A DNA stretch of 64,000 nt from Candidatus Fervidifonticultor secundus (GTDB lineage: Bacteria; Sysuimicrobiota; Sysuimicrobiia; Sysuimicrobiales; Humicultoraceae). Below are positions 48,712-64,000 of this stretch, one piece after another (within the stretch, counting starts at the first letter, position 1; each line of letters opens with the position of its first letter). The stretch covers positions 256,001 through 320,000 of the forward strand of contig JAVKIP010000001.1 in NCBI GenBank assembly GCA_031459385.1, in the 5' to 3' direction. Below the pieces are notes generated by a model, which saw only the letters and a list, made by a program, of their open reading frames with translations, did no database searches and was not told the DNA's origin. The position numbers were made by a program, and so were the translations under genes.

Positions 48712-49083
48712 GTCCGCAGCCTGCAGATCAGCGCGGCGACCGCTGTGGCCGGCGGTCTGCTCGGCGGCCTGATGGTGTATGCTGCCGTCAGCCCCGGCGC
48801 CCCGCGGTGCCCCGCTGCCGCCGCGGTTCCCTGCCATGCTGGCGCAGGCCGACCGGCTGGGGGCCGCGCTGGGCCCACCCCGGATGTCGCGCCCGTGCCA
48901 CAACGACCTGCTGCTGGCTAACTTCATCGACGACGGCGCGCGCCTGTGGATCATCGACTGGGAGTACGCGGCCATGGGCGACGTCTGGTTCGACCTGGGC
49001 AACTTCGCCATGCACCACCAGCGCTCCGACGACGAGGAACGGGTGCTGCTCGAGGCCTACGTCGGCTGCGTCGCGCCCCGGGG
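48712..49083 (+). pseudogene. Mosaic remnant: possible ABC permease fragment plus internal fragment of a choline-kinase-like gene
   Basis: VRSLQISAATAVAGGLLGGLMVYAAV, then CHNDLLLANFIDDGARLWIIDWEYAAMGD..FDLGN with no N-lobe and a truncated C-terminus. Confidence 0.7.
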
Positions 49084-49260
49084 CGATCGCCTCGGCGTTG
49101 GGGGCTTCCAGCAGGGGCTGGATCTGCCGCCGCGTGGACGTGATCAGCTCGCTGACGATGAGAGTTCGGCGGCGCGCGCTCATGGCAGCCCAGGTTGAGG
49201 ATGAACGCTGCGCGGAGGTTGCGCTGACGGGCGTCGTACGCTACCGCGCCGCCTGCGCCG

Positions 49261-50391
49261 TCAGGCGCCGGTCGTCACGGGAACCTGCACGCCCAGCTCC
49301 TCCAGCACCGCGCGGATCGCCGCCAGCGCCCTGCGGATGTGCCCCTCGTCGATTCGCCCGATGCACCCGATGCGGAACGAGTCGACGCGGGTGAGTTTGC
49401 CAGGGTAGATCAGGTAACCGCGCCGTGCCAGGCGGTCGTAGAGCGCCTGGAAGTCGAACCGCGGGTCGGACGGCACGAGAAAGGTGACGATGACCGGCCC
49501 CTGCAGCGCGTCGGGCAGCAGCGTGCGGAAGCCCAGTGCCCGCATGCCTTCCATCAGCACCTGGCAGTTGCGCCGGTAGCGGGCCAGGCGGGCGGGGCTG
49601 CCGCCTTCGGCGGCGTGTTCCTCCAGCGCCCGGTCCAAGGCGGCCAGTACGTGCGTGGGCGGCGTGAACCGCCACTGGCCCGTCTCCTCCATGAAGCGCC
49701 ACTGGTCGGCCAGGTCGAGGACCACCGACGGTGCGTTGCCCGCGGCGGTCTCCAGCGCCGTGCGGCGCGCGATGACGAACGTCGCGCCGGGCACCCCCTC
49801 GAGGCACTTGTTGGGTGACGAGACCAGGGCGTCGTACGGCATGGTGCGGGTGTCGCAGGGCAGGGCGCCGAAGGCGCTCATGGCGTCCACGAGCAGCCGC
49901 CGCCCGGCGGCTGCCACCACGTCGGCCACCTCGGCCAGCGGGTTGACGATGCCGGAGGTCGTCTCGGAGTAGACGACGGCCACGTGGGTGACGGCCGCGT
50001 CGGTGGCCAGGGCCGCGGCCGCCACCTGTGGGTCCACGGCCTGGTCCTCGGCCCATTCCAGGACGGCGTGCGCGCGTCCCAGGACCCGGCAGATCTGCAC
50101 CATGCGGCGCCCGTAAGCGCCGTTGGCGAGGACGAGCACCTTGCCGTCACGGGGCACGAACGTGCCGAGCATCGCCTCCACCCCGAAGGTGCCCGAGCCC
50201 TGCAGGAGCACCGCCTCGTGGGTCCCCTCGCCGCCGGCGAGCTCGACGAGCCGGCGCCGTACGCGGGCCGTCATGGCCACGAACGCCGCATCACGCGATC
50301 CCCAGTCGCGCAACATCGCCTCGCGGACCGTCCGCGAGGTGGTCAGCGGGCCCGGAGTCAGCAGCACGGGCACGTCGTCGGTACGCATCAT
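49261..50391 (-). CDS. phnW: 2-aminoethylphosphonate-pyruvate transaminase
   Basis: LLTPGPLTTS, DWGSRD, QGSGT, VDAMS, SSPNKCLEG, QWRFTPPT, IYPGKLT..SFRIGCIG. Confidence 0.95.
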   Translation of the reverse strand: MMRTDDVPVLLTPGPLTTSRTVREAMLRDWGSRDAAFVAMTARVRRRLVELAGGEGTHEAVLLQGSGTFGVEAMLGTFVPRDGKVLVLANGAYGRRMVQICRVLGRAHAVLEWAEDQAVDPQVAAAALATDAAVTHVAVVYSETTSGIVNPLAEVADVVAAAGRRLLVDAMSAFGALPCDTRTMPYDALVSSPNKCLEGVPGATFVIARRTALETAAGNAPSVVLDLADQWRFMEETGQWRFTPPTHVLAALDRALEEHAAEGGSPARLARYRRNCQVLMEGMRALGFRTLLPDALQGPVIVTFLVPSDPRFDFQALYDRLARRGYLIYPGKLTRVDSFRIGCIGRIDEGHIRRALAAIRAVLEELGVQVPVTTGA

Positions 50392-52094
50392 CGCCTCCGC
50401 CAGGCCTGGGTGCGCCGGTCGAGCCCCCGCGCCACCAGCAGGTGGAGCAGCTTCACCGCCGCCGACGTGTAGAAGATCATCATGGCCATGGCCGCGGCGG
50501 CGCCCTGCTGGCCGGTGTCGTCCATGTAGACCACCGCGATGGACGCCAGGCGGGTGTGCGGCGCCCACAGGAAGATTACTGCCGAGACTGTGGTCATGGC
50601 GTTGACGAACAGGTAGACCGCGATGTCGAGGATGGCTGGCAGGCACACCGGCACCGTGACGGCCCAGAGCGTGCGGTAGAACGGTGCCCGCAGCGACGCC
50701 GAGACGGCTTCGAACTCGGCGTCGAGCTGCTTGAGGGCCGTGGTCGCGGTCAGGTGGCTCACGGTGTAGAAGTGGACGATGGTGTTGATCACCATGATGG
50801 CCAGGGTGTTGTAGAGGAACCCCAGGGGGTTGGCGGGGTGGTTGAAGAAGAAGATGTAGCTGATGCCCAGCACCAGCCCCGGTACGGCTAAGGGCAGCAT
50901 GGCCAGCAGCTGCGTCAGGACCCGCACCGGTCCCCACCCCCGGGTCTTCTCCAGCAGGTAGGCGGTGGTGAAGACGATGGCCGTGCCCACCAGGGCCGCG
51001 GCCCCCGCCATCCTCAGAGAGTTCGTGTACGGCAGCCAGCCCTGGGTCTCGAAGCGGGCAAAGTTGTAGTTTTTCAGCCCCAGCGCCAGGTTGTAGGGCC
51101 AGAACGAGACAAACGAGCCCCACGCGGCCACCGCCAGTAGGCCCACGATGGGCACGGCGATGAGGGTACAGATGCCGAAGAACGTCCAGTCCACCGCCGG
51201 GCGCGGCCGGGGCTGGAGCGGCACCGCCTGGGGCGTGAGGGTGGCCTGCTGGCGGAGGCGCACGTAGCGTTCGGCCAGGAACGAGAGCACCGCGGGGACC
51301 AGCAGGATCATGCTGACCACGGCACCGGTCTCGAAGTTCTGGCGGCCGAAGACCTGCTTGTAGACGTCGGTGGCCAGCACGTTGAACTGTCCGCCGATGA
51401 CCTTGGGAATGCCGAAGTCGGTGATGACCAGGGTGAACACCACGAAGGCGGCGCTCATGAGGCCGTACTTGGCGCCGGGCACTGTGACCGTCAGGAAGAT
51501 CCGCCGGGGTGTGGCGCCCAGCGCGGCCGCCGACTCGTACAGCCGCGCGTCGGCCGTGGCCAGGGCGGTGGTCAAGATCATCAGGGCGTGGGGGAAGCAG
51601 TAGACGGCCTCGGCCGCGACGATCCCCAGCGGCCCGTAGATGGAGTGACCCAGCAGCCAGTCCCGGAGCAGCCCCTGGTTGCCGAACAGGTAGACCAGGG
51701 CCAGGGCCTGCAGCAGCGACGGTGCCAGGATGGGGACCAGCGCCACCGCGCCGAAGACCGCCTTGGCCTTCATGCTCGTGCGGGTCAGCGCATAGGCGTA
51801 GAGGAACGCAGCCGGCAGCACCAGCACCGTGGTGACCACCGCCACCCCCATGCTGTGCCAGATGGACGACGCCAGCGCAGGACTCGCCAGGTACTCGGCG
51901 TAGTTGGCCAAGCCCACGAACCGCCCGTCCCGGTCGAGGAACGACTTGGACAGCAGCGCCCACAGGGGACCCGCCACGGTCACCGCCAGCCACAGCGCCG
52001 CACCGGCCAGGCCCGCGCGGGCGAGGCGCTCGTCGGCAGCCAGCTGCCGGCGCAGGGGCCGGGCCGCCCGGGGGGTCAGCGCCGTCGTGACCAC
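50388..52094 (-). CDS. Putative 2-AEP ABC transporter permease (PhnU2-like)
   Basis: APSLL, YLFGNQG, TDFGIPKVIGG, FVNAMTTVSA; overlaps the phnW start. Confidence 0.88.
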   Translation of the reverse strand: MVTTALTPRAARPLRRQLAADERLARAGLAGAALWLAVTVAGPLWALLSKSFLDRDGRFVGLANYAEYLASPALASSIWHSMGVAVVTTVLVLPAAFLYAYALTRTSMKAKAVFGAVALVPILAPSLLQALALVYLFGNQGLLRDWLLGHSIYGPLGIVAAEAVYCFPHALMILTTALATADARLYESAAALGATPRRIFLTVTVPGAKYGLMSAAFVVFTLVITDFGIPKVIGGQFNVLATDVYKQVFGRQNFETGAVVSMILLVPAVLSFLAERYVRLRQQATLTPQAVPLQPRPRPAVDWTFFGICTLIAVPIVGLLAVAAWGSFVSFWPYNLALGLKNYNFARFETQGWLPYTNSLRMAGAAALVGTAIVFTTAYLLEKTRGWGPVRVLTQLLAMLPLAVPGLVLGISYIFFFNHPANPLGFLYNTLAIMVINTIVHFYTVSHLTATTALKQLDAEFEAVSASLRAPFYRTLWAVTVPVCLPAILDIAVYLFVNAMTTVSAVIFLWAPHTRLASIAVVYMDDTGQQGAAAAMAMMIFYTSAAVKLLHLLVARGLDRRTQAWRRR

Positions 52095-52100
52095 GGCGGC

Positions 52101-53180
52101 TCAGTCGCCGGGGAAGACGCGGACGCGGTCAGCAGGCACGGACACGGTGAGGGTCCGGCCCGGTGCCAGGTTCACCTCGCGGTGCAGGTGCGCGGGAACG
52201 TCGGCACGGAGGGCGGCGGCATCCGCTGCGGCCGGCCGGAGGGTGGCCCGGTAGAAGGATCCCAGGAAGTCGACGGCGACCACCTCGGCTGCGATGGTGT
52301 TGGGGGCACCGGTACGGGCGCCGCGAACGTCCACGTCCTCGGGGCGGAAGCAGACGCGCACCGGGCTCCCCGCCGACAGGCCGTCGGCAGGGGCGCAGGT
52401 CAGTTCTGTGGCACCGACACGCACGCGGTCAGGGCGCAGCAGGGTACCGCGGAGGAAGTTCATCTCGCCTACGAAGTCGGCGACGAAGGAGGTGGCAGGG
52501 TGTTGGTAGACGTCCATGGGCGTGCCGATCTGCTCGATGACGCCATGGTTCATGACCGCGATGCGGTCAGCCATGGTCAGGGCCTCCTCCTGATCGTGGG
52601 TGACCAGGATCGTCGTCACGCCCAGCTGGCGTTGCAGGTGGCGGACCTCGTGCCGCAGCCGTACCCGCAGGCGCGCGTCCAGTGCCGACAGCGGTTCGTC
52701 CAGGAGCAGGAGGCTCGGCGACGGCGCCAGGGCCCGGGCCAGCGCCACCCGCTGCTGCTGGCCGCCCGACAGCTGCGCGGGGTACTTGGTCCGCTCGCCC
52801 TGGAGGCCCACCAGGGCCAGCAACTCCTCCACCCGGGCGCGGATCTGGGCCCGGGTGAGCCCTCGGCCCTGGAGGCCGTAGCCGACGTTGTCGAAGACCG
52901 TCAGGTTGGGGAACAGGGCGTACGACTGGAAGACGATGCCGAAGTCGCGACGTGCTGGCGGCAGGCCGGAGATGTCGCGTCCTTCCCTGAGGACACGGCC
53001 GCGGGTCTGGACCTCCAGGCCCATGATGATCCGCAACAGCGTGGTCTTCCCGCACCCTGAGGGGCCGAGCAGGCAGACGAACTCGCCCCGGCCGACGTCG
53101 AAGCTGACGTCCCGCAGCGCCACGAACGCCCCAAACGTCTTCCAGATCTGCTCGACCTGGAGGTAACGGGCGTCGTGCAT
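52101..53180 (-). CDS. Putative 2-AEP ABC transporter ATP-binding protein (PhnT2-like)
   Basis: [30 protein letters not shown]-like C-terminus. Confidence 0.9.
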
Positions 53181-53281
53181 GGTGGCAGCCAGGACGGCCC
53201 TGCCGGCCGCGGCCTCACCGCTGACCGGCCCGGGGCTGGTGCCGGTGCGACCAGGCCCCGGGCACGGCAGGCGATCTGGGG

Positions 53282-54328
53282 CTACCGGGTGGGTTTGCCC
53301 TCGTAGCGGCGCACCCACTCCTTGAGGATGCGGTCACGGTTCTTCGCCATCCACTCGAAGTCGTTCTTGATCATCTTCGCTTCGCCGTCGGGCGGGTAGA
53401 ACGGCGGGAGGTTGGACATACCCGGCATCCCCACGATGGCGTACCACTGGTTGTACATCTCCATGGCTCTGCGGCTGACCGAGAAGTCGACCAGGCGGCG
53501 GGCAGCAGCCAGGTTGCGCGTCCCGCGGTGGATGGCCGTCGCCTCCATGTCCCACCCCGCGCCTTCCCTGGGGACGATGACGTCGATGGGCGCGCCTTCC
53601 TGCTTCAGCCGCGCGCCCCGCATGTCGAAGCCGATGCCCAGGGTGAACTCCCCCCGCGCCGCCTGGACGCAGGGCGCCGAGCCCGAATGGGTGTAGTGGC
53701 CGATGTTGTCGTGGACCTGGTCCATGAACTTCCAGCCGTCCTGCTCGCCGAACAGCTGGAGCCACGCCGAGACCGTCAGGAACCCGGTGCCCGAGGAGTT
53801 GGGGTTGGGCATGACCAGCAACCCCTTGTAGATGGAGTTGGTCAGGTCCTTCCACGACTGCGGCCGCCGGATGCCGCGCCGGGCCGCCTCCCGGGTGTTG
53901 AAGCACACCACCGAGAGGAAGGCGTCCATGCCGGTCCACGTCATGGGGTTCTTGCTGCTGCGGAACTGGGGCTTGAGCTGCTCGGCGCCTCGCGGGGTGT
54001 AGGGCTCGATCATGCCCAGCTCCTCGAAGAGGATGATGCTGGTCACCGCCAGCCCCCAGATGACGTCGGCCCGGGGGTTGGCGCGCTCAGCCAACAGGCG
54101 CGCGGTGACGACACCCGTCGAGTCCCGCACCCAGTCGATGACGATGCCCGGGTTCTCGCGCTCGAAGGTTTCCTTGTAGGGCCCGAGCTGGTCGTTCTCC
54201 AGCGCCGTGTAGACGGTCAGCCGGGTGACCTGAGCGCGGGCCTCGCCCAGCAGGCCCACGGCCAGGGCAGCGGCAACCACCGAGACCGCCAGGTACTGCG
54301 CTGTACGCGTCCACCGTCGTGCCGGCAT
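53282..54328 (-). CDS. Putative 2-AEP ABC substrate-binding protein (PhnS2-like)
   Basis: Signal peptide, [33 protein letters not shown]. Confidence 0.9.
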
Positions 54329-54407
54329 AGTCACCCCTCCCGGACGGAACGGTCTGTGGCGCTTCCATTCCCTACGCCGTGCGCAATCCCTTGCCGCTCG
54401 CATCGCC

Positions 54408-55874
54408 CTACCCCGGCAGGCGCATGCGGATGCTTTTGACCTGCGTGTAGCTCAACAGCTCCTCCAGGCACTCCTCCCGCCCGATGCCGCTCTGCTTCAC
54501 CCCGCCGTAGGGCACGCCCAGGGCGTGGCCCCCCGGGATGTTGACCCACACATACCCCGCTTCGAGCCGGCGAGCCACCCGCAGCGCCCGGGCAGAGTCG
54601 CGGGTGTAGATTGCCGCGCTCAGCCCGTAGATGACCGCATTCGCCTGGCGGAGCATCTCCTCCTCGTCGTCCCACGTCAGGACGGCGATCACCGGGCCAA
54701 AGATCTCCTCCTGGGCGATGCGCATCTGTGGCCGCACGCCGTCGAACAGCGTGGGCTGCACGAAGAAGCCCCGGCGCAGCGCCGGATCCTCGGGCGGGCC
54801 GCCGCCGTAGAGGAGGCGGGCGCCCTCGCGGCGGCCGGCCTCGATGTATTCCAGGACCTTCTCATACTGTTCCCGCGACACCAGGCACCCGACCTGGCTG
54901 TCGTCGGCCTCGGGCAGGCCCAGACGCAGCACCCGCAGCCGGGCCAGCAGGGCGTCGACGAACGCGTCGTGCAGGTCGCGGTGGACGAACACCCGGGAGG
55001 TGCTGCTGCACGACTGCCCGGCGCGGTTGAGGTTCATGGCTCCCACCGCCGCCTCGGCCGCCTCGTCGGGCGGGACGTCCGGGAACAGGATCAGCGGGTT
55101 CTTGCCGCCCAGCTCCAGCGTGACCACCTTGAGCCCATCGGCGGCGGCCCGCATGACCGCCCGCCCGGCTTCCACCGAGCCGATCAGGGCGACCCGCCGC
55201 ACCAGGGGGTGGCGGACCAGGGCCGCGCCGGTCGTGGGACCGTCGCCGGTCACGATGTTCACGACGCCCGGCGGGAACAGGTCCGCTACCAGGCGGCCCA
55301 GCACCAGGGACGAGAGGGGGGCCTGCTCGGGCGGTTTGATGACCACGGTGTTGCCGGCCGCCAGCGGCGCCGCCAGCTTCTCGGCCGCGAACCGCAGCGG
55401 GTGGTTGTACGGGTTGATCTTGGCCACGACGCCGTAGGGCTCGCGCACCGTGCACGCAAACTCGCCGAGGCCGGTAGGGTACGTTTCCCCTTTGAGTTCG
55501 GGGGTCAGCCCGGCGAAGTAGTCCAGCGCCTCCGCCGCCCAGTCCACGTCGCGGCGCATGCCGGTGATCACGTTGCCCGAGTTGAGGGCGTCCAGCCGCG
55601 CCAACACGTCGCGGTGCTGGCGGAGGGCGGTGGCCAGCTGACGCAGCCGCACCGCGCGCTCGGCCGGCGGGGTGGCGGTCCAGGCGGGAGCTGCCGCGTG
55701 CGCTGCAGTGACGGCGAGATCGACGTCGGCTTCGTCGGCCAGCGGGACGTGGGCCAGCACTTCCCGGGTGGCGGGGTTGTAGGTCGGCAGGGTACGGCCG
55801 GACCGGCTCTCTTCCCAGCGCCCGCCGATGAACAGCCGGCCGACCGGCAGCTCGTCGAGCAGCGTCACGGACAT
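54408..55874 (-). CDS. Aldehyde dehydrogenase (PhdK-like subfamily; candidate phosphonoacetaldehyde dehydrogenase)
   Basis: PYNHP, ALIGS, LELGGKN, GQSCSSTSR, EEIFGP; does not resemble canonical PhnY as recalled. Confidence 0.88.
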   Translation of the reverse strand: MSVTLLDELPVGRLFIGGRWEESRSGRTLPTYNPATREVLAHVPLADEADVDLAVTAAHAAAPAWTATPPAERAVRLRQLATALRQHRDVLARLDALNSGNVITGMRRDVDWAAEALDYFAGLTPELKGETYPTGLGEFACTVREPYGVVAKINPYNHPLRFAAEKLAAPLAAGNTVVIKPPEQAPLSSLVLGRLVADLFPPGVVNIVTGDGPTTGAALVRHPLVRRVALIGSVEAGRAVMRAAADGLKVVTLELGGKNPLILFPDVPPDEAAEAAVGAMNLNRAGQSCSSTSRVFVHRDLHDAFVDALLARLRVLRLGLPEADDSQVGCLVSREQYEKVLEYIEAGRREGARLLYGGGPPEDPALRRGFFVQPTLFDGVRPQMRIAQEEIFGPVIAVLTWDDEEEMLRQANAVIYGLSAAIYTRDSARALRVARRLEAGYVWVNIPGGHALGVPYGGVKQSGIGREECLEELLSYTQVKSIRMRLPG

Positions 55875-56078
55875 GTCCAGCCCCTGGGGCGTCGCCCCTG
55901 GCGGTAGTGTCGTGAGGTCATGCGCGTATCGCCTCGCGTGCTTCCCGCAGGGCCGCCCGCGCGGCTTCCATGGCCCAGGAGCACCGACCCCCAACCCATG
56001 GGGAAGTTCCACGTACCGGCGGCCCGTCGTGTCCCATGCCCGGTACCCATGCCCGCGCCCTCCCCGCCGCGCACAGTG

Positions 56079-56945
56079 CTACCCGGGGTGCGGGACTGCC
56101 AGCCGCTCGGGCGGCAGCGTGCGCTCCGGCGGCCCGTCGTAGAACTCCGGTTTCTGCAGCTCCAGGTCCAGCGGTTGCACGATGGGTGCCTGCGTCGAGG
56201 CCCGCCAGCCGCGCTCGCGGTGCATCTCCTCGTAGGTGTGGGCGATGAGCCCTACCGTCCGCGACAGCAGGTAGACGCCCTTGATCAGGTCCACGTCGAA
56301 CCCCATGTCCATGCAGATGGCGCCCACCGCCCCGGGGCCGTTCAGGTAGAGGCGCCGACCCCAGAACTCCTCGGTGGCCGCCTCGATGGCCCGGGCCATG
56401 GCCACGTGTCGCCCGGCCACCCCGTAGGCGTCGGCCAGCTCCAGCAGGCGCGCGGTGCGCGGGTCGACGATGTGCTGCGCATGGTGGTAGCCAGGCAGCC
56501 GTCGGCCCTCCCGCCGCGCCTCGCCGGCGACGCGGCGCGCGGTCTCCTCGAGGGTGAGACCTTCTTGGTCCATGCGGGCGATCGCCTCCTTGAACAGCGC
56601 CGCGGGCCGGTCGGCCGTGCCGTGGAGCGCGCCGAGGGCGAGCAGCCCGCCCGCCACGCCCACGTGCAGCGGCACACCGCCCGAGGTGACGAAGCGGCAG
56701 GCCGCCGACGACGGCGAGAACGCGTGCTCGCACTGGTTCACCAGAATGGCATCGAGCATGCGGGCGTGGTGCTCGGGGGGCAACTCGCCGCGCCAGACCA
56801 GGTAGGCCATCTCGGCGAACGAGACCCGACCCGTCAGGTCGTTGATGTTGTACCCGCGGACCACCACGCGGTCCCGGGTCTTGTAGGCGATGGCGGTACG
56901 CCAGTGGAATGGCTCCCGGCGCGGTGTCGCTGCGGCTGGTTCCAT
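56079..56945 (-). CDS. Citryl-CoA lyase-like protein (citrate synthase fold)
   Basis: WRTAI, VRGY, EH, LHG, PGYHH, DPR, SRTVGLIAH; NGPG replaces NVDG. Confidence 0.82.
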   Translation of the reverse strand: MEPAAATPRREPFHWRTAIAYKTRDRVVVRGYNINDLTGRVSFAEMAYLVWRGELPPEHHARMLDAILVNQCEHAFSPSSAACRFVTSGGVPLHVGVAGGLLALGALHGTADRPAALFKEAIARMDQEGLTLEETARRVAGEARREGRRLPGYHHAQHIVDPRTARLLELADAYGVAGRHVAMARAIEAATEEFWGRRLYLNGPGAVGAICMDMGFDVDLIKGVYLLSRTVGLIAHTYEEMHRERGWRASTQAPIVQPLDLELQKPEFYDGPPERTLPPERLAVPHPG

Positions 56946-56990
56946 GGACGGGACCTCCTCCGGTGCTCTGCGCGCGTCGGCCGGCGCCGG

Positions 56991-57824
56991 CTATCGCGGC
57001 GCCGGCCGGACGCCGGCGACGGTGGCGTCGTCGGACCTCAGGTAGACACGCTGCGGGTCGAGCTCTTCGCGCAGCACCCGCAGGTCCTCGGCCTCTGGCG
57101 GTGCCACCGTGCCCACGTCCGCCGCCACCTCGGGCCGGAACCCTGTCTGGGCCAGGACGTCGTCCACGCGCACCCCCGGCATCAGGCGCGTCAGGCGCAG
57201 CGTGCACGTCACGGGATCGCTTTCGAGCACCGCCAGGTCGGTGACCACGGTCACGGCGAAGTCGGGAGACAGCCCGGCCCGCTGGCGGGCCCCGGGGCCG
57301 TCGAGGAACCCGGGGCTGGTGATGTAGTCGCACCGCTCGGGGAACCGGCGCCTCTCGTGGTGGGCGATGATGAGCAGCCGTCGGCAGTGGCTGGCCATAT
57401 CGTTGGCACCGCCGCTGCCCGGCAGCCGGCGGCGCAGCGCGCCCGGCGGGCCGATCTGCGTCGAGTTGATGTTGGCGTGGCGGTCGATCTGCGCGCCGCC
57501 CAGGAAGCCCACGTCGATCAGCCCCCGCTGGAGCAGGCCGCCCAGCACCTCCCGCAGCGTGCCCAGGCGCATCGCACGCGCCATGACCTTGGGGTCAGAG
57601 ACCGAGATCGGTGTCGGCCGCACCAGCGGCGCGATGACGCCGCTCTCGATGACCATGACGACACCCGGGGCGTGGCGGCGCTGCGCCAGGGCCGTGGCCA
57701 GCAGGGGCAGACCCGTGCCGACGAAGACCACCTCGCCGTCGCGCAGGCGGCGGGCGGCCTCGATCACCATGAGCTCCTGGTGACTGAAGGCGCGCGCCCG
57801 GTCGGTGCCCGTCGCCTGAGGCAC
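56991..57824 (-). CDS. Family I CoA transferase subunit B (GctB-like)
   Basis: VFVGTGLP, IESG catalytic Glu, FLGGAQID..ANIN, LPGSGGANDMA. Confidence 0.9.
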   Translation of the reverse strand: MPQATGTDRARAFSHQELMVIEAARRLRDGEVVFVGTGLPLLATALAQRRHAPGVVMVIESGVIAPLVRPTPISVSDPKVMARAMRLGTLREVLGGLLQRGLIDVGFLGGAQIDRHANINSTQIGPPGALRRRLPGSGGANDMASHCRRLLIIAHHERRRFPERCDYITSPGFLDGPGARQRAGLSPDFAVTVVTDLAVLESDPVTCTLRLTRLMPGVRVDDVLAQTGFRPEVAADVGTVAPPEAEDLRVLREELDPQRVYLRSDDATVAGVRPAPR

Positions 57825-57867
57825 TACCGCGCCCTCCGCGCCACCGGCGCCGCCGCCACGTCCGGCA

Positions 57868-58863
57868 CTACAGCACCTCCCGCATGGCCGCGCGCAGCGC
57901 CGCCAGGCGCGCCGGGCCCGCGGTCCGCGCCAGGTAGTCGTCGAAGGACGGACAGTCCCACACCGTCGCCTGGAGGTACGCGTCTACCGCGGCCGGTCCG
58001 GCGCGGGCCGCCTCCTGGTAGCGGGCGACTTCGAGCGCGTCGTAGTCGTAGTGGCCGTAGACCGACGTGGGGTAGGCGCCGAACGGCTGGACCACCACGG
58101 CGTCGACGTACATGAAGGGCACCGTCGTCCGCTCGGGGGCGGCCCGGATCTCGTCGGTCGAGATCAACTCCTCGCACGAGACGACCACGGCCCGCGAGGC
58201 GCGCAGCATCTCGGGCTCGTGGGTGGCGAAGCCTTCGATGACGAGGTTGCCGAGCGGGTCGGCGCGCTGGACGTGCACGATGGAGACGTCGGGCTGCAGC
58301 GCCGGCACCAGGACCACGGGCTCGCCCGGCGCCCAGGGGTTGTCGACGACCACGGCCTTGCCGGGCCCGCGCGGCGCGGGCGTGTCGGCGCCCGGCGCCG
58401 CGGCACCCCGCCCCCCGTGGGGCGCCGCACCCGCAGGGGGGACCCCCAGCATGTCGGAGCCCAGCAGGCTGCGCGTCGGCATGAACGGCACGCCCATCTC
58501 ACCGGCCAGGAAGCGGCTGACCATGGCCAGGTGGCTGTAGTCCTCATGCTCCAGGGTGCCGTCCTCGATGCCGCGGCGCCAGCAAAACGTCACCCCGAAC
58601 CGCTCCAGGTTGCCCGAGCCCGACTCGGTGCGCCGGACCAGGCCGGCGCCGACCAGCTGGTCCATGCCGATCGACAGGTTGCAGCCCACCACGGTCAGGC
58701 CGCCGATGCGCTGGCGGATGATCTCGTGGGTCAGCGCCTGGGGACAGCGACCGATGTTCTGGCCGCCCATGCCCAGCACGCTGCCCGGCCGCACGAAGCG
58801 CGCGACCGCCTCGGCTGCTGTCATGACTTTGGGCGCGGTGCGGGCCGCGGCGGGAACTGCCAC
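57868..58863 (-). CDS. Family I CoA transferase subunit A (GctA-like)
   Basis: HEIIRQ, DQLVGAG, PFMPTRSLLGSD, HVQRAD..GN, PFGAYP; GGAGG RBS. Confidence 0.9.
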   Translation of the reverse strand: MAVPAAARTAPKVMTAAEAVARFVRPGSVLGMGGQNIGRCPQALTHEIIRQRIGGLTVVGCNLSIGMDQLVGAGLVRRTESGSGNLERFGVTFCWRRGIEDGTLEHEDYSHLAMVSRFLAGEMGVPFMPTRSLLGSDMLGVPPAGAAPHGGRGAAAPGADTPAPRGPGKAVVVDNPWAPGEPVVLVPALQPDVSIVHVQRADPLGNLVIEGFATHEPEMLRASRAVVVSCEELISTDEIRAAPERTTVPFMYVDAVVVQPFGAYPTSVYGHYDYDALEVARYQEAARAGPAAVDAYLQATVWDCPSFDDYLARTAGPARLAALRAAMREVL

Positions 58864-58896
58864 TGCCGACCTCCAGGGGCACGCTGGCTTGCCTGC

Positions 58897-58925
58897 ATTA
58901 TGGGAGGGGGCCTGGATAATGTCAA
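58897..58925 (-). promoter_or_regulatory. Sigma70 promoter of the CoA transferase operon
   Basis: Minus strand TTGACA (58925-58920) - 17 nt - CATAAT (58902-58897) in an AT-rich gap divergent from lysR. Confidence 0.75.
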
Positions 58926-58963
58926 ATAAGAGATGCGCGACGTTTTCTAAGAAGATATTATAG

Positions 58964-59926
58964 ATGGCGATGGCGCGCGCGCCCCTGCCCCTGGGCCCCC
59001 TGCGCACGTTCCACCAGGTGGTGGTCCACCAGGCTTTCAACCGGGCCGCGCGCGCCCTGGGCGTCACGCAGCCCGCGGTCACCCAGCAGATGCGCCGGCT
59101 CGAGCGGGCCACAGGCGTCACCCTCTTCGAGCGCGACGGCCGCCGGCTGGTGCTCACCGAGGCCGGCCGGGCCCTGGCCGTCTACACGCAGCGCATCTTC
59201 GACCTGGTGGACGCCGCGCAGGACGCCCTGGCCGGCGCCCGCGAGCTGCGCACCGGCATCCTGCGGGTGGGCGCCAGTCGCACGGCCGGCGCCTACTACA
59301 TCGCCGACCTGCTCGACCGCTTCAAGCAGCGCTACCCCGGCGTGAAGGTGAGTTTGACGGTGGGGAACTCCCAGCTCGTCCTCGACCGGATCCGGGAGTT
59401 CTCACTGCACGCCGGACTCGTCGCCGGCCGGCCCGACGACGCGGCGCTGGTGACCCGGCCGCTGGTCCGGGACCGGATGCTCGTGGTGCTGCCCCCGCGC
59501 CACCCGCTGGCGCAGCAGGCCCGCGTCTCCATTCGCGACCTGCAGGGCTGGCCCCTCATCATGCGCGAGCCGGGCTCCACGACGCGCCACCTCATCGAAC
59601 AGGCTGCGGCGGCACGCGGGGTGCTCGTCGACGCCGCGATGGAGCTCGAGAGCAACGAGGCCATCAAGAGCGCGGTGGCCGACGGGATCGGGGTGGCGAT
59701 CATGGCCCACGCCGCCGTGGCCCAGGACCTGGCGAGCGGCCGTCTGGTCGGCCGCCCGTTGCGCGAGGCCCTGGCGCTGGACTTCGCGCTGGTCTACCAC
59801 CGCGACCGGGTGCTGGCGCCCGTGCTGGCGGCGTTCCTGGCGTTGCTGCCGGCGCGCGCACGCCGCGGCGCCGGTGCCCCCGGAGGAAAGCACACGCCGG
59901 GGCAGGAACCAAGGGGCCGGCGTTAG
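58964..59926 (+). CDS. LysR family transcriptional regulator
   Basis: FNRAARALGVTQPAVTQQMRRLE, LTEAG, REPGSTTR, EAIKSAV. Confidence 0.93.
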   Translation: MAMARAPLPLGPLRTFHQVVVHQAFNRAARALGVTQPAVTQQMRRLERATGVTLFERDGRRLVLTEAGRALAVYTQRIFDLVDAAQDALAGARELRTGILRVGASRTAGAYYIADLLDRFKQRYPGVKVSLTVGNSQLVLDRIREFSLHAGLVAGRPDDAALVTRPLVRDRMLVVLPPRHPLAQQARVSIRDLQGWPLIMREPGSTTRHLIEQAAAARGVLVDAAMELESNEAIKSAVADGIGVAIMAHAAVAQDLASGRLVGRPLREALALDFALVYHRDRVLAPVLAAFLALLPARARRGAGAPGGKHTPGQEPRGRR

Positions 59927-59943
59927 AACCCGGAGGCGTCGCG

Positions 59944-61308
59944 ATGGACCGCGTCGTGCCCAAACCGTCCGAAGGCGACCTGAACCTCTCCCCCCGGCGC
60001 ACGGCCTGGCAGGCCGCGATGCTCGACGACGCCACCCGCGCCCTCCTGGACGAGGACGCCCGCTACTTCCTCCACCAGGCACTCTCGACCCCCTGCCTGA
60101 ACGCGCTGCGCCGCTGCGAGGGCATCTACCTCGAGGACCTGCAGGGACGCCGCTACATGGACTTCCACGGGAACAGCGTCCATCAGGTCGGCTTCGGCAA
60201 CCCCGCGGTGGTGGCGGCGGTCAAGGCGCAGCTGGACGCGCTGAGCTTCTGCCCGCGGCGGTTCACCAACGAGCCGGCGGTGGCGCTGGCCAGGACGCTG
60301 GCGCGCCTGGCGCCCGGCGACCTGCACAAGGTGCTGTTCTGCCCCAGCGGCACGGGCGCCATCGGCATCGCGCTGAAGCTGGCCCGCGCGGTCACCGGCC
60401 GTTACAAGACCATCTCCATGTGGGACGCGTTCCACGGTGCCTCCCTCGACGCGATCTCGGTGGGCGGCGAGGAGCTGTTCCGCCGCGACGCCGGCCCGCT
60501 GCTCCCCGGCACCGAGCACGTGCCGCCCCCTGACCCCTACCGCTGCGTGTGGGACTGCCAGACGCGCGGCGGGTGCGACCTGAAGTGCGCTGGCTACATC
60601 GAGTACGTGCTCGAGAAGGAAGGCGACGTGGCGGCCGTGATCGCGGAGACGGTGCGGGCGACGCCGGTGATTCCGCACCGCGCGTTCTGGTCGACCGTGC
60701 GGGCGGCCTGCGACCGCCACGGGGCGCTGTTGATCCTCGACGAGATCCCCACGGCGCTGGGCCGCACCGGCGCCATGTTCGCCTGCGAGCACTACGACGT
60801 CGTTCCCGACATCCTGGTGCTGGGAAAGGGCCTGGGTGGCGGCATCCTCCCCCTGGCCGCGGTCCTTGCCCGCGAGCGTTTCGATGTGGCGGCCGACCGG
60901 GCGCTGGGCCACTACACGCACGAGAAGAGTCCCGTGGCCGCCGCCGCGGCCCTGGCCACGCTGCAGTACATCGAGGACCACGGCCTGGTCGCGCACGCCC
61001 GCACGCTGGGCCGCTATGCCCTGGACCGGCTGCGCGCGATGCAGGCGCGCCACCCGTTGATCGGCGACGTGCGGGGGCTGGGGTTGCTGCTGGGCGTCGA
61101 GCTGGTCACCGACCGCGGCACACGCGCGCGGGCCACCGCTGAGGCCGAGGCGGTCTTGTACGCGGCACTGTCCCGCGGCCTGAGCTTCAAGGTCAGCATG
61201 GGGAACATCCTGACCCTGAGCCCGCCGCTCGTGATCACCCGGGCCGAGATGGACCGCGCCCTGGACATCCTGGACGAGAGCCTGACGGAGGTCGAGCGGA
61301 GCCGATGA
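59944..61308 (+). CDS. pbfA: (R)-1-hydroxy-2-aminoethylphosphonate ammonia-lyase (class III PLP)
   Basis: SEGDLN, FLHQALSTPCL, MDFHGN.VHQ, FHGASLDAISVGGE, GHYTHEKSP; linked to phnW. Confidence 0.85.
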   Translation: MDRVVPKPSEGDLNLSPRRTAWQAAMLDDATRALLDEDARYFLHQALSTPCLNALRRCEGIYLEDLQGRRYMDFHGNSVHQVGFGNPAVVAAVKAQLDALSFCPRRFTNEPAVALARTLARLAPGDLHKVLFCPSGTGAIGIALKLARAVTGRYKTISMWDAFHGASLDAISVGGEELFRRDAGPLLPGTEHVPPPDPYRCVWDCQTRGGCDLKCAGYIEYVLEKEGDVAAVIAETVRATPVIPHRAFWSTVRAACDRHGALLILDEIPTALGRTGAMFACEHYDVVPDILVLGKGLGGGILPLAAVLARERFDVAADRALGHYTHEKSPVAAAAALATLQYIEDHGLVAHARTLGRYALDRLRAMQARHPLIGDVRGLGLLLGVELVTDRGTRARATAEAEAVLYAALSRGLSFKVSMGNILTLSPPLVITRAEMDRALDILDESLTEVERSR

Positions 61309-61964
61309 TCGTCCAGCCCGACCTGGCGCCGGGGCAGACGCTACTCTACACGCTGCGCCACGGCCTCACCGAGCTGAACCGCTCCAAGCGCACCGGCGGC
61401 CGCCTGGACGTGCCGCTGACCGCGGAAGGTCGCCGGCAGGCCGAGGAGGCCCGCGAGCAGTTCGCGGGCACGGCGCTCGACGTCGTGATCGCCTCCAGCC
61501 TGGGCCGCGCGATTGAGACCGCCGAGATCGTCACGGGGTGGGCGCGGGAGCAGATGATCATCGACGATCTGGCGGTCGAGCGCAGCTTCGGCCAGATGGA
61601 AGGCCTCACCCAGGACGAGATCCGCGAGCGGTTCCCGGACGTGATCTACGTGCCGATCGACCACATCCGCTACTCCCTCAACCCGCCGGGTGGGGAGTCG
61701 TTCGAGGCGCTCCGCACCCGGGCCCGGGCGTTCCTGGCCCGCGTGCTCGCGGCCCACCGCGGCAAGCGCGTGCTGGTCTCCTCGCACCAGAACTTCATGC
61801 AGCAGCTCCACGGCGAGCTGCGGGGCCTCGACCCCTATGCGGCGCTTAAGTACGACATCCTGAACCTGGAGCTGAACCAGTTCCACCTGGACGCCGACGG
61901 TCGGCTGCTCGCCCACCGCGTCTACCAGCTCTGCCCCGACGCCTCGAAGTACCCCTCGTTCTGA
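61305..61964 (+). CDS. Histidine phosphatase (phosphoglycerate mutase-like) family protein
   Basis: LRHG, SSLGRA..TA, ERSFG..EG, PGGES, VSSH; ATGA overlap with pbfA. Confidence 0.85.
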   Translation: MIVQPDLAPGQTLLYTLRHGLTELNRSKRTGGRLDVPLTAEGRRQAEEAREQFAGTALDVVIASSLGRAIETAEIVTGWAREQMIIDDLAVERSFGQMEGLTQDEIRERFPDVIYVPIDHIRYSLNPPGGESFEALRTRARAFLARVLAAHRGKRVLVSSHQNFMQQLHGELRGLDPYAALKYDILNLELNQFHLDADGRLLAHRVYQLCPDASKYPSF

Positions 61965-61981
61965 GGGCCGGAGGCGGGCCG

Positions 61982-63280
61982 GTGGCAGCGGGCACCCGGC
62001 GGCTGCAGGCGGTGGTCGAGGCCCTGGCCGCGCGCCTGTGGCAGCGATTCCCCCCGCAGGTCCGCGGGCTGCGGCGGGTGGGCCGCGAGGCCGAGTTCCC
62101 GGTGGTCTGGCCGGACGGCCGGGCCGGCGAGGTTGCGCGCCTGTGGGACGGTCTGCGCGCCGACGCTGGTGCCCGCGTCCGGTACGATGACCCCGACCGG
62201 CGGACGATCATCGAGCGCGTGGACATCGGTGATGTCGGCTACGAGGTCGAGGTCGGCCGGGCCACCGTCGAGGTGGTGCTGCCGCCCGCCGACGATCTGC
62301 ATGGGCTGGCCGCGGCCTCCGCGGTGGCTGTGGGCCGGCTGGCGCGCGTAGCGGCCGCGGAGCGCCTGCGTATCCTCGGGTACGGCATTCAGCCCCGGGC
62401 GCGGGCCCGACCCGGCCTGATCACTCCCAAGCGCCGCTACGCCGCGTTCCACCGCAGTGTCGGCCGGCCCTGGCTGCCGTTCACGACCACGGCCAGCGAC
62501 CAGGTGCACGTGGACGTCGGGCGCGACGAGCTCATCGAGGTGACCAACGTCATGAACCTGCTGTCAGGCGCCATCATCGCGCTGACGGCCAACTCGTCCG
62601 TCTACGCAGGACAGGTCGGGCGCTTCTGCTCCGGCCGGGAAGGGCTGCTGCGCGTGCTGGGCGACCGCCACGGCATGCCGCCCCGGCCCTTCGCAGACCT
62701 GGAGGATTACGTGTGGTTCGTCTGCCAGCAGCCGTGTGCCGTGCTGCGGCGGGGCCACGACTACGTGGCGTACGGCCGGCCGCTGGCGGCATACGTCGGG
62801 GCGCGCGGGCCAGACCTCGACGCGTTCCTCTGGCACGAGCACTACCTCTGGTACAGCGCGCGGCCGCGGGCGCAGCACGCCACCGTCGAGGTCCGGCCGG
62901 CCTGCCAGCAGCCGCCCGACGACCCCCTGGCGGCTGCCGCCCTGGCCCTCGCGCTGGTGGAGGGCTGGCGCGAGGCGCGGGCGCTGGTGGCCGACGCGCT
63001 CGGCACCGACGCGCGGGGACCCGATGCCTGGCAGGCGATGGCGGCCTACCGGCAGGCGGCGATCCGCGACGGCATCCGCGCGGCTGAGCCTGCCCCGCGG
63101 TTCCTGGCCCGGCTGCTGGACGTGGCGGAGGCGGCTCTGCGCCGGCGCGGGCGCGGCGAAGAACGCCTCCTCGCCGGCCTCCGGCGCCGGGTGGAGCGGC
63201 GCCGGCTGCCGGCTGACGACGCCGCGGCGGCGTTCCGGCGCGGCGGCGCGGCGGCGCTGGTGGCGACCCGGGCGCTGTAG
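61982..63280 (+). CDS. Glutamate-cysteine ligase family 2 (GCS2)-like ligase
   Basis: VGREAEF, EVG...VE, TASDQVHVD, IALTANS, ARPR, VEVRPACQQP. Confidence 0.78.
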   Translation: MAAGTRRLQAVVEALAARLWQRFPPQVRGLRRVGREAEFPVVWPDGRAGEVARLWDGLRADAGARVRYDDPDRRTIIERVDIGDVGYEVEVGRATVEVVLPPADDLHGLAAASAVAVGRLARVAAAERLRILGYGIQPRARARPGLITPKRRYAAFHRSVGRPWLPFTTTASDQVHVDVGRDELIEVTNVMNLLSGAIIALTANSSVYAGQVGRFCSGREGLLRVLGDRHGMPPRPFADLEDYVWFVCQQPCAVLRRGHDYVAYGRPLAAYVGARGPDLDAFLWHEHYLWYSARPRAQHATVEVRPACQQPPDDPLAAAALALALVEGWREARALVADALGTDARGPDAWQAMAAYRQAAIRDGIRAAEPAPRFLARLLDVAEAALRRRGRGEERLLAGLRRRVERRRLPADDAAAAFRRGGAAALVATRAL

Positions 63281-63360
63281 GGGCCTGCCGGCGCGGGCGC
63301 CGGCGTGCCGCAGACGCGGACGCTGGGGGCGAGATGCACGACACGTGACGGAGGGAGACG

Positions 63361-64000
63361 ATGGGGCGGCTCGACGGCAAGGTCGTGTTGATCACGGGCG
63401 CGGGCAGCGGCATGGGCCGTGTCGCGTCCGTGCGCTTCGCGCGCGAGGGCGCGCGGATCGTGGTGGCAGAGGTGGCCGAGGCCGCCGGGCGCGAGACGGC
63501 CGGTGAGGTCCGCGCCGCCGGCGGCGAGGCGCTCTTCGTGCGCACCGATGTCGCGCGGGAGGCCGACGTGGCCGCGGCGGTCCGCGCGGGCGAGGAGGCG
63601 TTCGGCCGCATCGACGTCCTCTACAACAACGCCGGGATCTTCCCCCCGGACGACGGGTCGGTCGTCGACCTGGACGAGGCGGTCTGGGACCGGGTGATGG
63701 CCATCAACCTCAAGGGCATCTACCTGGTCTGCAAGCACGGCATTCCGGCGCTGCTGCGCGCCGGCGGTGGGTCGGTGATCAACATCGCCAGCTTCGTGGC
63801 CCTGGTGGGGTGCACCGTGCCGCAGGACGCCTACACCGCCAGCAAGGGCGGGGTGATCGCCCTCACGAAATCGCTGGCGGTGCAGTTCGGGCCCCGGGGC
63901 ATCCGTACCAACGCCATCTGCCCCGGGCCCATCGAGACCCCGCTGCTGACGCAGTGGCTGCTCACCAACCCCGAGGCGAAGGCGGTGCGCCTGGCGCGCA
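63361..64000 (+). CDS. SDR family oxidoreductase (runs off the window end)
   Basis: Read from sequence: MGRLDGKVVLITGAGSGMG, NNAG, YTASKGG, NAICPGP. Confidence 0.9.
   Translation, partial: MGRLDGKVVLITGAGSGMGRVASVRFAREGARIVVAEVAEAAGRETAGEVRAAGGEALFVRTDVAREADVAAAVRAGEEAFGRIDVLYNNAGIFPPDDGSVVDLDEAVWDRVMAINLKGIYLVCKHGIPALLRAGGGSVINIASFVALVGCTVPQDAYTASKGGVIALTKSLAVQFGPRGIRTNAICPGPIETPLLTQWLLTNPEAKAVRLAR

Follow-up and report, generated by a model that had tools for sequence, protein, structure and literature searches.

A candidate coenzyme A-dependent ending for 2-aminoethylphosphonate catabolism in Candidatus Fervidifonticultor secundus

The 64,000-nt stretch of DNA analysed here (the window: Candidatus Fervidifonticultor secundus, GCA_031459385.1, contig JAVKIP010000001.1, positions 256,001-320,000 of the forward strand, G+C ~72%) carries a gene cluster that is best explained as a catabolic operon for 2-aminoethylphosphonate (AEP) and hydroxy-AEP (HAEP), the last step of which would be carried out by a new module. 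This module is a triad of genes, encoding the two subunits of a coenzyme A transferase (CoAT-A and CoAT-B) and an altered citrate-synthase-like protein that resembles citryl-CoA lyase (CCL-like). Together, these proteins probably cleave the carbon-phosphorus (C-P) bond by an undescribed route. As judged from genome comparisons, we consider it fairly probable that the module replaces the hydrolase PhnA and acts via a phosphonoacetyl-CoA intermediate. The support for this interpretation lies at the level of comparative genomics, and its three main elements are the mutual exclusion of the module and PhnA, their exchange within a syntenic cluster, and the association of the same triad with non-orthologous aldehyde oxidisers. 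A CoA-dependent chain of this kind had been proposed in a sequence-only reading of the window, and the comparative evidence supports it without contradicting it at any point.

Exchange of the module with PhnA

The phylum sample comprised 94 genomes, in which the CCL-like gene was counted at E <= 1e-60, and PhnA, PhnX and PhnW when they scored over the cut-off of their models. PhnW was counted in 13 genomes, the CCL-like gene in 23, PhnA in 12 and PhnX in none. The CCL-like gene and PhnA never occurred in the same genome (0/94). Two CCL-like-positive genomes flagged as unpublished (G024 and G032) are included in these figures; without them the counts are 21 and 12 of 92, respectively, and the overlap is still 0.

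Clusters of both types are found in family f4. All genomes of genus g21 (6/6) carry genes for a GNAT protein, a short-chain dehydrogenase (SDR) and a glutamine-synthetase (GS)-like ligase on one side, and for a CysK-like protein, PhnA, a class-III aminotransferase and a binding protein on the other; the exceptions are L134, which gave no SDR match, and L136, which gave no CysK-like match. Four full loci read from the sister genera g24 and g26 (L137, L138, L139 and L141) show GNAT-SDR-GS-like-LysR on one side and CoAT-A-CoAT-B-CCL-like-(aldehyde dehydrogenase, ALDH)-class-III aminotransferase-binding protein on the other, with no SDR match in L138. The flanking genes of the two cluster types match the same queries, at 66-88% identity. 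This synteny was interpreted as meaning that the same place in the cluster is taken by either PhnA or the module. The CysK-like protein, a pyridoxal phosphate enzyme encoded immediately upstream of PhnA in five of the six g21 clusters (L124 10623-11882; L132-L135), has no counterpart in the CoAT/CCL-type clusters.

The neighbourhood survey called for by the sequence-only reading showed that CoAT and CCL-like genes recur beside phn genes across phyla and gene orders. It was based on 111 loci around CCL-like homologues, 31 from species genomes and 80 from metagenomes, a set that includes near-duplicates, so that the counts are not independent. CoAT genes accompany the CCL-like gene in 67 of the 80 loci that extend 1 kb or more upstream. 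Phosphonate markers were scored by identity to verified proteins in the 56 loci whose flanks cover 6 kb or more: some marker was present in 29 of them, and PbfA lies in or beside 22, including the class-III-aminotransferase loci L044, L060 and L063. The Armatimonadota loci reproduce the full cluster of the window. In Methylomirabilota-type loci, the order is LysR on one side and, on the other, CoAT-A, CoAT-B, CCL-like, a ThiS-like protein, an aldehyde:ferredoxin oxidoreductase, PbfA, PhnW and PhnS2T2U2; in one of these (L028), PbfA, PhnW and PhnS2 exceed their cut-offs. In a third arrangement, hereafter context B, the neighbours of the triad are a class-III aminotransferase, an amino-acid-type binding protein, a GS-like ligase, an SDR and a GNAT protein, and some of these loci have PbfA nearby. 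Finally, actinomycete loci, including those of cultured Catenulispora (L024-L027), associate the triad with another ALDH. In relatives a LysR gene accompanies the CoAT/CCL block, and this LysR protein is likely to be the regulator of the module.

The aldehyde oxidiser varies with the lineage. Armatimonadota have an ALDH resembling betaine-aldehyde dehydrogenase (BADH), actinomycetes a different ALDH (36% identity), and eight Methylomirabilota-type loci the ThiS-like protein and aldehyde:ferredoxin oxidoreductase in place of an ALDH. That the Methylomirabilota-type clusters swap the ALDH for an aldehyde:ferredoxin oxidoreductase indicates that the aldehyde has to be oxidised to the free acid. 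The window ALDH is not an orthologue of PhnY (233.9 bits against TIGR03250, cut-off 635.65), and its best matches in the PDB are betaine-aldehyde and ALDH1/2 enzymes. Like these hydrolytic enzymes, it should yield a free acid rather than a CoA ester. Among the 94 genomes, 15 have a close orthologue; 14 of these carry the CCL-like gene and one carries PhnA, as would fit an enzyme supplying phosphonoacetate to either ending. In the PhnA-positive genome (G075), the locus of this orthologue (L146) has no neighbours that match the query proteins.

The same neighbourhoods could be read differently, with the triad acting on a non-phosphonate X-CH2-COO- compound and the phosphonate linkage being secondary. 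The substrate could be, for example, malonate (formed from beta-alanine or malonate semialdehyde, malonyl-CoA then giving acetyl-CoA and CO2) or sulfoacetate (formed from taurine). An exchange-and-cleave logic would suit malonate equally well. Moreover, the actinomycete triad stands with an ALDH and an ABC transporter and with no phosphonate marker over cut-off, and in many loci the triad is accompanied by a class-III omega-aminotransferase and an amino-acid-type binding protein, not by PhnW and PhnS2. Nevertheless, this reading appears unlikely, because the block occupies the position of PhnA, a hydrolase specific for phosphonoacetate, whose hits in the relatives lie over the equivalog cut-off at 568-634 bits. 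It also accounts poorly for the phosphonate markers, PbfA among them, in the longer loci, for the transporter and the two aldehyde-forming enzymes of the window, all of which pass AEP-specific equivalog models, and for a sister clade (see below) that adjoins phosphoenolpyruvate (PEP) mutase and phosphonopyruvate decarboxylase.

Gene content of the cluster and search for known C-P-cleaving enzymes

The real frames of the window were identified from their third-position G+C, their ribosome-binding sites and their matches to known families. All the genes that the sequence-only reading had listed between 49261 and 61964 were found in place and in the same layout. A leftward run on the minus strand (49261-58863) encodes, in order of transcription, CoAT-A, CoAT-B, CCL-like, ALDH, PhnS2, PhnT2, PhnU2 and PhnW, and a divergent run on the plus strand encodes LysR, PbfA, a His-phosphatase, a GCS2-type ligase and an SDR. 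The features are as follows.

49261-50391, minus strand: phnW, AEP:pyruvate transaminase, converting AEP into phosphonoacetaldehyde (NF010006, 532.5 bits, cut-off 296; TIGR02326, 480.8 bits, cut-off 400.8)
50388-52094, minus strand: phnU2, AEP ABC transporter permease, a fused double permease (TIGR03262, 774.7 bits, cut-off 593.25)
52101-53180, minus strand: phnT2, AEP ABC transporter ATPase (TIGR03265, 513.2 bits, cut-off 457.7); start uncertain, the frame being open to 53318
53282-54328, minus strand: phnS2, AEP ABC transporter substrate-binding protein (TIGR03261, 453.6 bits, cut-off 392.75)
54408-55874, minus strand: non-acylating NAD(P)-aldehyde dehydrogenase, ALDH (PF00171, 511.9 bits)
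56079-56945, minus strand: CCL-like protein of the Asp-less clade, 288 aa (PF00285, 114.1 bits, cut-off 27)
56991-57824, minus strand: CoAT-B, GctB-like (PF01144, 96.6 bits, cut-off 23)
57868-58863, minus strand: CoAT-A, GctA-like (PF01144, 88.2 bits, cut-off 23)
58864-58963, no strand: divergent intergenic region, richer in A+T than the sequence around it, carrying an inverted repeat ATTAT-N14-ATAAT at 58897-58920
58964-59926, plus strand: LysR-family regulator (PF03466, PF00126; best model TIGR03339, 245.2 bits, below its cut-off of 341.1)
59944-61308, plus strand: PbfA ammonia-lyase (NF049939, 723.4 bits, cut-off 525)
61305-61964, plus strand: histidine-phosphatase-superfamily protein, His_Phos_1 (PF00300, 154.1 bits)
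61982-63280, plus strand: GCS2/YbdK-type carboxylate-amine ligase (PF04107, 60.3 bits)
63361-63999, plus strand: SDR, cut at the window end (PF00106, 179 bits)

PhnW, PbfA, PhnS2, PhnT2 and PhnU2 all exceed the cut-offs of curated NCBI equivalog models, and the formation of phosphonoacetaldehyde that the sequence-only reading had ascribed to both PhnW and PbfA agrees with their membership of curated families. The phnW start overlaps the phnU2 stop by 4 nt, and the His-phosphatase gene, which overlaps the pbfA stop, is translationally coupled to it. The ATG of phnS2 (54328) is preceded by GGGAGGGG. The start of CoAT-A was set at the GTG at 58863, behind GGAGG, the other candidate being the ATG at 58824. 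The GCS2-type ligase and SDR genes prolong the cluster past 61964, and both are conserved alongside it in relatives. On the other side, the cluster ends left of phnW, since an IclR regulator, a kinase fragment and unrelated genes are found there. The fragment, a 139-aa frame (48779-49198) between the IclR regulator and phnW, matches solely the C-terminal part of APH/choline-kinase phosphotransferase families and is probably a gene remnant.

The window LysR protein is closest to a subfamily associated with AEP catabolism, the one described by TIGR03339. The inverted repeat in the divergent region could be considered a candidate LysR site, a weakly supported one; of 31 related intergenic regions between LysR and CoAT-A, only 7 contain the strict ATTAT-N14-ATAAT pattern.

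The absence from the window of phnX, phnA, phnZ and C-P lyase genes, which the sequence-only reading had noted, extends to the whole genome (3.30 Mb, 59 contigs, completeness 97.6%, contamination 5.5%), where profile searches for PhnX, PhnA, PhnZ and PhnJ gave nothing over cut-off. The best genome-wide scores were 54.2 bits for PhnX (TIGR01422, cut-off 220), 28.6 bits for PhnA (TIGR02335, cut-off 407.55), 119.7 bits for PalA (cut-off 374.4) and 397.2 bits for PhnY (TIGR03250, cut-off 635.65), while PhnJ (PF06007) and the PhnZ-type HD oxygenase (TIGR03276) had no match at all; PhnY* itself was not searched for. The TIGR02335 model does detect PhnA in 12 of the 94 relatives. A congeneric genome (G009), assembled in only 4 contigs, likewise combines this cluster with a lack of PhnX and PhnA, indicating that their absence is not due to an assembly gap. 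Neither enzyme exceeds its cut-off in any of five further triad-bearing genomes (0/5 for each).

The CoA transferase, the CCL-like protein and the proposed route

CoAT-A matches chain A of PDB entry 1POI, the glutaconate CoA-transferase GctA/GctB of Acidaminococcus fermentans (E 3.7e-46, residues 12-324), and CoAT-B matches chain B over nearly its full length (E 3.8e-47). The Glu of the IESG motif is kept in CoAT-B, where "mviESGvi" aligns with "iivESGlm" of 1POI chain B; we take it to be the catalytic glutamate, Glu54 of GctB. Scores against 3-oxoacid transferase models are far under the cut-offs. Some members of this structural family, such as entries 5MZW and 6CO6 among the matches of the two subunits, are lyases or hydrolases and not transferases, so that CoA-transferase activity of CoAT-A/B is likely rather than certain. 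In glutaconate CoA-transferase, acetyl-CoA is the donor and dicarboxylates are the acceptors, and the closeness of the window protein to an acetyl-CoA-using enzyme fits a transferase recharged by acetyl-CoA. The difference would lie in the acceptor, phosphonoacetate.

The closest solved relative of the CCL-like protein is the Hydrogenobacter citryl-CoA lyase 6HXP (E 5.7e-46). A structural model (pLDDT 74.7) has 6HXP as its top Foldseek match (probability 1.00, TM 0.60/0.66, 36% identity), which confirms, at the level of the model, a citrate-synthase fold. The protein has the size of 6HXP and of the CCL module of ATP-citrate lyase (about 260-290 aa, the short citrate-synthase form) and, like them, has His and Arg residues at the sites for oxaloacetate and the thioester. 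In the numbering of pig citrate synthase (CS), it retains the counterparts of His238, His274, His320, Arg329 and Arg401. Two of its histidines, H108 (in LHG) and H155 (in GYHH), which correspond to the catalytic His pair of CS (His274 and His320), align with the LHGGA and GYGH motifs of 6HXP and citrate synthases and are invariant in 12/12 homologues.

In contrast, the catalytic Asp of the NVD motif (Asp375 of CS) is lost, LNVDG of 6HXP being replaced by LNGPG in the window protein. No Asp is present at this site in 12/12 aligned homologues, nor in the 31 first loci that cover it, and the replacements among the aligned members are NGP, NAP or NAV. In addition, GYGH has become GYHH within an invariant HHxQH motif (H154, Q157 and H158 being gained), a new invariant Asp (D112) lies behind the LHG motif, and a C-terminal extension, REKGWRAS...QPLDLxLQxPEFYDGP, is conserved. 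The loss of the catalytic Asp and the HHxQH motif indicate that this is not a normal citryl-CoA lyase. An exhaustive family search of 1.84 billion representatives gave 2621 matches; among the 150 best, this signature is limited to about a dozen, and most other representatives among these 150 retain N-[VI]-D. A FastTree phylogeny (support values not inspected) places the signature clade apart from canonical CCL-like representatives. A separate, divergent group of short CCL-like proteins (P0032, P0033, P0046, P0060, P0073 and others) has neither the His of LHG nor the Asp of NVD and shows motifs such as SVFVG... and N-[AV]-T-G; it is a distinct, uncharacterised subfamily with the same fold.

It might be argued that the module is an ordinary citrate CoA-transferase and citryl-CoA lyase, converting citrate into acetyl-CoA and oxaloacetate and lying next to phn genes through chance. 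The solved structure closest to the CCL-like protein is indeed that of a citryl-CoA lyase, and its best models are NCBIfam "citryl-CoA lyase" subfamily models, two of which are exceeded (NF004869, 216.5 bits, cut-off 212; NF004868, 202.3, cut-off 193) and a third is not (NF004866, 237.8, cut-off 245). The citryl-CoA lyase equivalog model NF004864 gives 177 bits, far under its cut-off of 261. The NVD Asp, kept in 6HXP and replaced in every aligned member, is presumably the equivalent of the residue changed in Asp-to-Ala variants of ATP-citrate lyase. These variants were crystallised, according to the titles of their PDB entries, with citryl-CoA that was not cleaved. Furthermore, the genomic partners are phosphonate genes and not citryl-CoA synthetase, and this linkage to phosphonate genes recurs in several phyla and gene orders, so that the citrate explanation seems highly improbable.

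The preferred reading, a CoA-dependent C-P cleavage, can be set out as the following series of steps. PhnS2T2U2 import the phosphonate, and PhnW and PbfA convert AEP and R-1-hydroxy-AEP, respectively, into phosphonoacetaldehyde, functions that follow from their curated families. The non-acylating ALDH would oxidise the aldehyde to free phosphonoacetate, from which the GctAB-like CoAT would form phosphonoacetyl-CoA and acetate at the expense of acetyl-CoA. The thioester would then bind to the Asp-less CCL-like protein at the citryl-CoA site, its phosphonate group occupying the oxaloacetate-derived position, where the conserved His and Arg residues would hold it. Cleavage of the C-P bond, with the enolate of acetyl-CoA as leaving group, would release inorganic phosphate (Pi) and acetyl-CoA, the latter being reused by the transferase. 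The net reaction would be phosphonoacetate + H2O giving acetate + Pi, with CoA acting catalytically. One may speculate that the loss of the Asp frees room for the phosphonate dianion, and that D112 or the added His residues serve as acid/base groups or water activators.

The nearest described pathway is the PhnW-PhnY-PhnA route of Sinorhizobium meliloti, which two articles (PMC12366243, PMC10574752) describe as leading from AEP through phosphonoacetaldehyde and phosphonoacetate to acetate and Pi. The window cluster shares the PhnW entry, with PbfA as a feeder, and would also share an ALDH step and an ending at the level of phosphonoacetate. This ending is provided in the PhnWYA route by a single hydrolase of alkaline-phosphatase fold, whereas here it would require CoA, the two CoAT subunits and a protein of citrate-synthase fold; there is no PhnA in the genome, and the ALDH is not PhnY. 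In a 2023 review (PMC10574752), C-P cleavage is given as hydrolytic (PhnX, PhnA, PalA), oxidative or radical only, and PhnA is described as having to stabilise an aci-carboxylate leaving group. A thioester would make this leaving group far better and thus ease the problem.

Exchange cycles based on an acetyl-thioester are found in citrate lyase (CitF and CitE) and in malonate decarboxylase (MdcA and the decarboxylase). The logic proposed here would be the same, namely thioester exchange, cleavage beta to the thioester carbonyl and regeneration of the acetyl-thioester. However, those systems use a prosthetic thiol bound to an acyl carrier protein, have unrelated lyase folds and cleave C-C bonds, whereas the window module would use free CoA, a family-I CoAT and a citrate-synthase fold to cleave a C-P bond. 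The resemblance would thus be one of mechanism and does not imply membership.

With this module, the hydrolytic AEP pathway would exist in a further, new form, and its C-P-cleaving step would be catalysed by a new type of enzyme. The sequence-only reading knew of no described pathway of this kind, and our full-text literature searches, whose coverage left subscription journals largely outside, likewise turned up no CoA-dependent phosphonoacetate or AEP pathway, nor did term searches within PMC12366243, PMC10590968, PMC8942020 and PMC10574752. Phosphonoacetyl-CoA itself appears in a preprint on flavophos biosynthesis in Burkholderia, as a predicted product only. Phosphonates represent a major organic phosphorus pool, and the organisms that use them are counted via PhnX, PhnA, PalA, PhnZ or PhnJ. 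Published surveys (PMC12366243) define AEP-degradation clusters as PhnW together with PhnX or with PhnY/PhnA, a definition that makes clusters like the present one invisible to them. If the proposal is true, CoA-dependent cleavage is to be added to the ways of breaking a C-P bond, the citrate-synthase fold gains a new reaction and a conserved "citryl-CoA lyase" subfamily, currently mis-named, acquires a function. AEP mineralisation would in that case reach Armatimonadota, Methylomirabilota-type and possibly actinomycete bacteria of soil and groundwater.

Exceptions, the sister clade and neighbouring units

Several observations weigh against the proposed route. All its chemical steps beyond phosphonoacetaldehyde are inferred, as are the identity of the protein that would cleave the C-P bond and the intermediate through which it would do so. 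The Asp that (de)protonates the alpha-carbon of acetyl-CoA being gone, enolate chemistry cannot copy citryl-CoA cleavage and another group is needed, for which D112 or a His are guesses. The exclusivity with PhnA rests on few independent events, the genomes being related: 2 genera have PhnA and 12 have the CCL-like gene. An adjacent ALDH is absent from the PhnA-type g21 clusters and from 8 of the 14 context-B loci bearing a class-III aminotransferase, i.e., roughly half. In the actinomycete clade no phosphonate marker exceeds its cut-off, a PhnT2-like protein scoring 403 bits (cut-off 457.7) and a PhnW-like protein 197 bits (cut-off 360.8). A 96% complete genome (G014) carries PhnS2T2U2-PhnW beside His-phosphatase-GCS2-SDR, without the module, PbfA, PhnX or PhnA; this implies either that PhnW can occur without a recognised ending, or that another ending, still to be recognised, exists. 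Similarly unexplained is G027, which has PbfA and PhnW and no module, with a PhnX-like gene elsewhere in the genome (173-175 bits, cut-off 220). In another genome (G011), the contig stops inside phnU2 and is uninformative. Finally, 13 of the 80 loci have no CoAT, all within one clade, and the CoAT-B query found no homologue in three Spirochaete genomes, so that these CCL-like proteins must get their substrate otherwise or act on something else.

This CoAT-less sister clade shows that CoAT is not always the source of the substrate of CCL-like proteins. Four of its loci, and L095, adjoin genes for PEP mutase, phosphonopyruvate decarboxylase or AEP transaminase (over cut-off in L030), and this link to phosphonate biosynthesis argues for a phosphonate-related substrate. 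It is an evenly balanced proposition that the Asp-less clade constitutes a sixth, unrelated kind of C-P-cleaving enzyme, a phosphonoacetyl-CoA phosphonohydrolase with an enolate leaving group and a dedicated, self-recharging acetyl-CoA:phosphonoacetate CoAT, while its CoAT-less sisters could be repair enzymes. Such repair enzymes could destroy phosphonoacetyl-CoA formed accidentally from phosphonopyruvate by 2-oxoacid oxidoreductases. The loci concerned (L030 9980-15059; L033 9974-18269; L093, L094 and L095) carry the CoAT-less, Asp-less CCL-like gene next to a fusion of cytidylyltransferase and PEP mutase, together with phosphonopyruvate decarboxylase and either AEP transaminase or an iron-type alcohol dehydrogenase, in surface-glycan clusters of Spirochaete type. 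In two other CoAT-less loci (L078 and L089), PhnX was considered and rejected, the HAD proteins encoded next to the CCL-like gene scoring only 42-44 bits against phosphonatase models; these loci give no evidence of a phosphonate link.

Downstream of PbfA, the His-phosphatase is conserved in Armatimonadota loci and absent from Methylomirabilota-type and context-B clusters. The GCS2-type ligase is conserved behind it, at 57-82% identity, and the SDR proteins matched behind GCS2 in L142, L143 and L145 are 65-68% identical to a context-B SDR (L056). Closer homologues of the L056 SDR are encoded next to the GS-like ligase of context-B clusters. His-phosphatase-GCS2-SDR (61305-63999 in the window) remains adjacent to phnW and the genes of the AEP transporter in relatives that have no module as well (L127 of G014 and L129 of G027), and looks like a second conserved, unexplained unit linked to phosphonates. 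Its analogue in context B consists of the GS-like ligase, the homologous SDR and the GNAT protein.

The persistence of this unit beside phnS2T2U2-phnW in L127 and L129, and the overlap of the His-phosphatase gene with the pbfA stop, could be taken to mean that the module merely handles carbon. An unrecognised enzyme, for instance the PbfA-coupled His-phosphatase, would cleave phosphonoacetaldehyde, after which the ALDH would oxidise acetaldehyde, the CoAT would activate acetate and the CCL-like protein would have some other role with CoA esters. We regard this as improbable. The exchange with PhnA takes place in f4 clusters that have no His-phosphatase gene, nor is one present in the Methylomirabilota-type clusters that combine PbfA and PhnW with the triad. 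The CCL-like and CoAT genes stay together, in the 67 of 80 loci mentioned above, regardless of the aldehyde oxidiser, and G027 has its near-cut-off PhnX-like gene elsewhere. To our knowledge, no member of the His-phosphatase superfamily cleaves C-P bonds.

The SDR that recurs in 15 loci was considered as a possible HAEP racemase, PbfF. This was rejected, the SDR belonging to PF00106/PF13561 and PbfF, as published (PMC12366243), to pfam02826.

Other genes were noticed near phnW in relatives. Fusions of an FAD-oxidase with GCV_T, resembling dimethylglycine dehydrogenase, adjoin phnW in L012 (14007-16511), L127-L129, L145 and L108 (4804-8100); they occur as two copies flanking a class-III aminotransferase-like gene, and a formyl-tetrahydrofolate deformylase is also encoded in L108 and L023. 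These fusions, which are not present in the window, may demethylate N-methylated AEP. HAD proteins scoring just under the PhnX cut-off of 220 bits are encoded in L130 (8537-9358, G027, 174.9 bits) and L131 (4146-4961, G013, 182.2 bits), next to an ABC transporter and an aminotransferase resembling glutamate-1-semialdehyde aminomutase; both could be divergent phosphonatases, and neither genome has the CCL-like gene.

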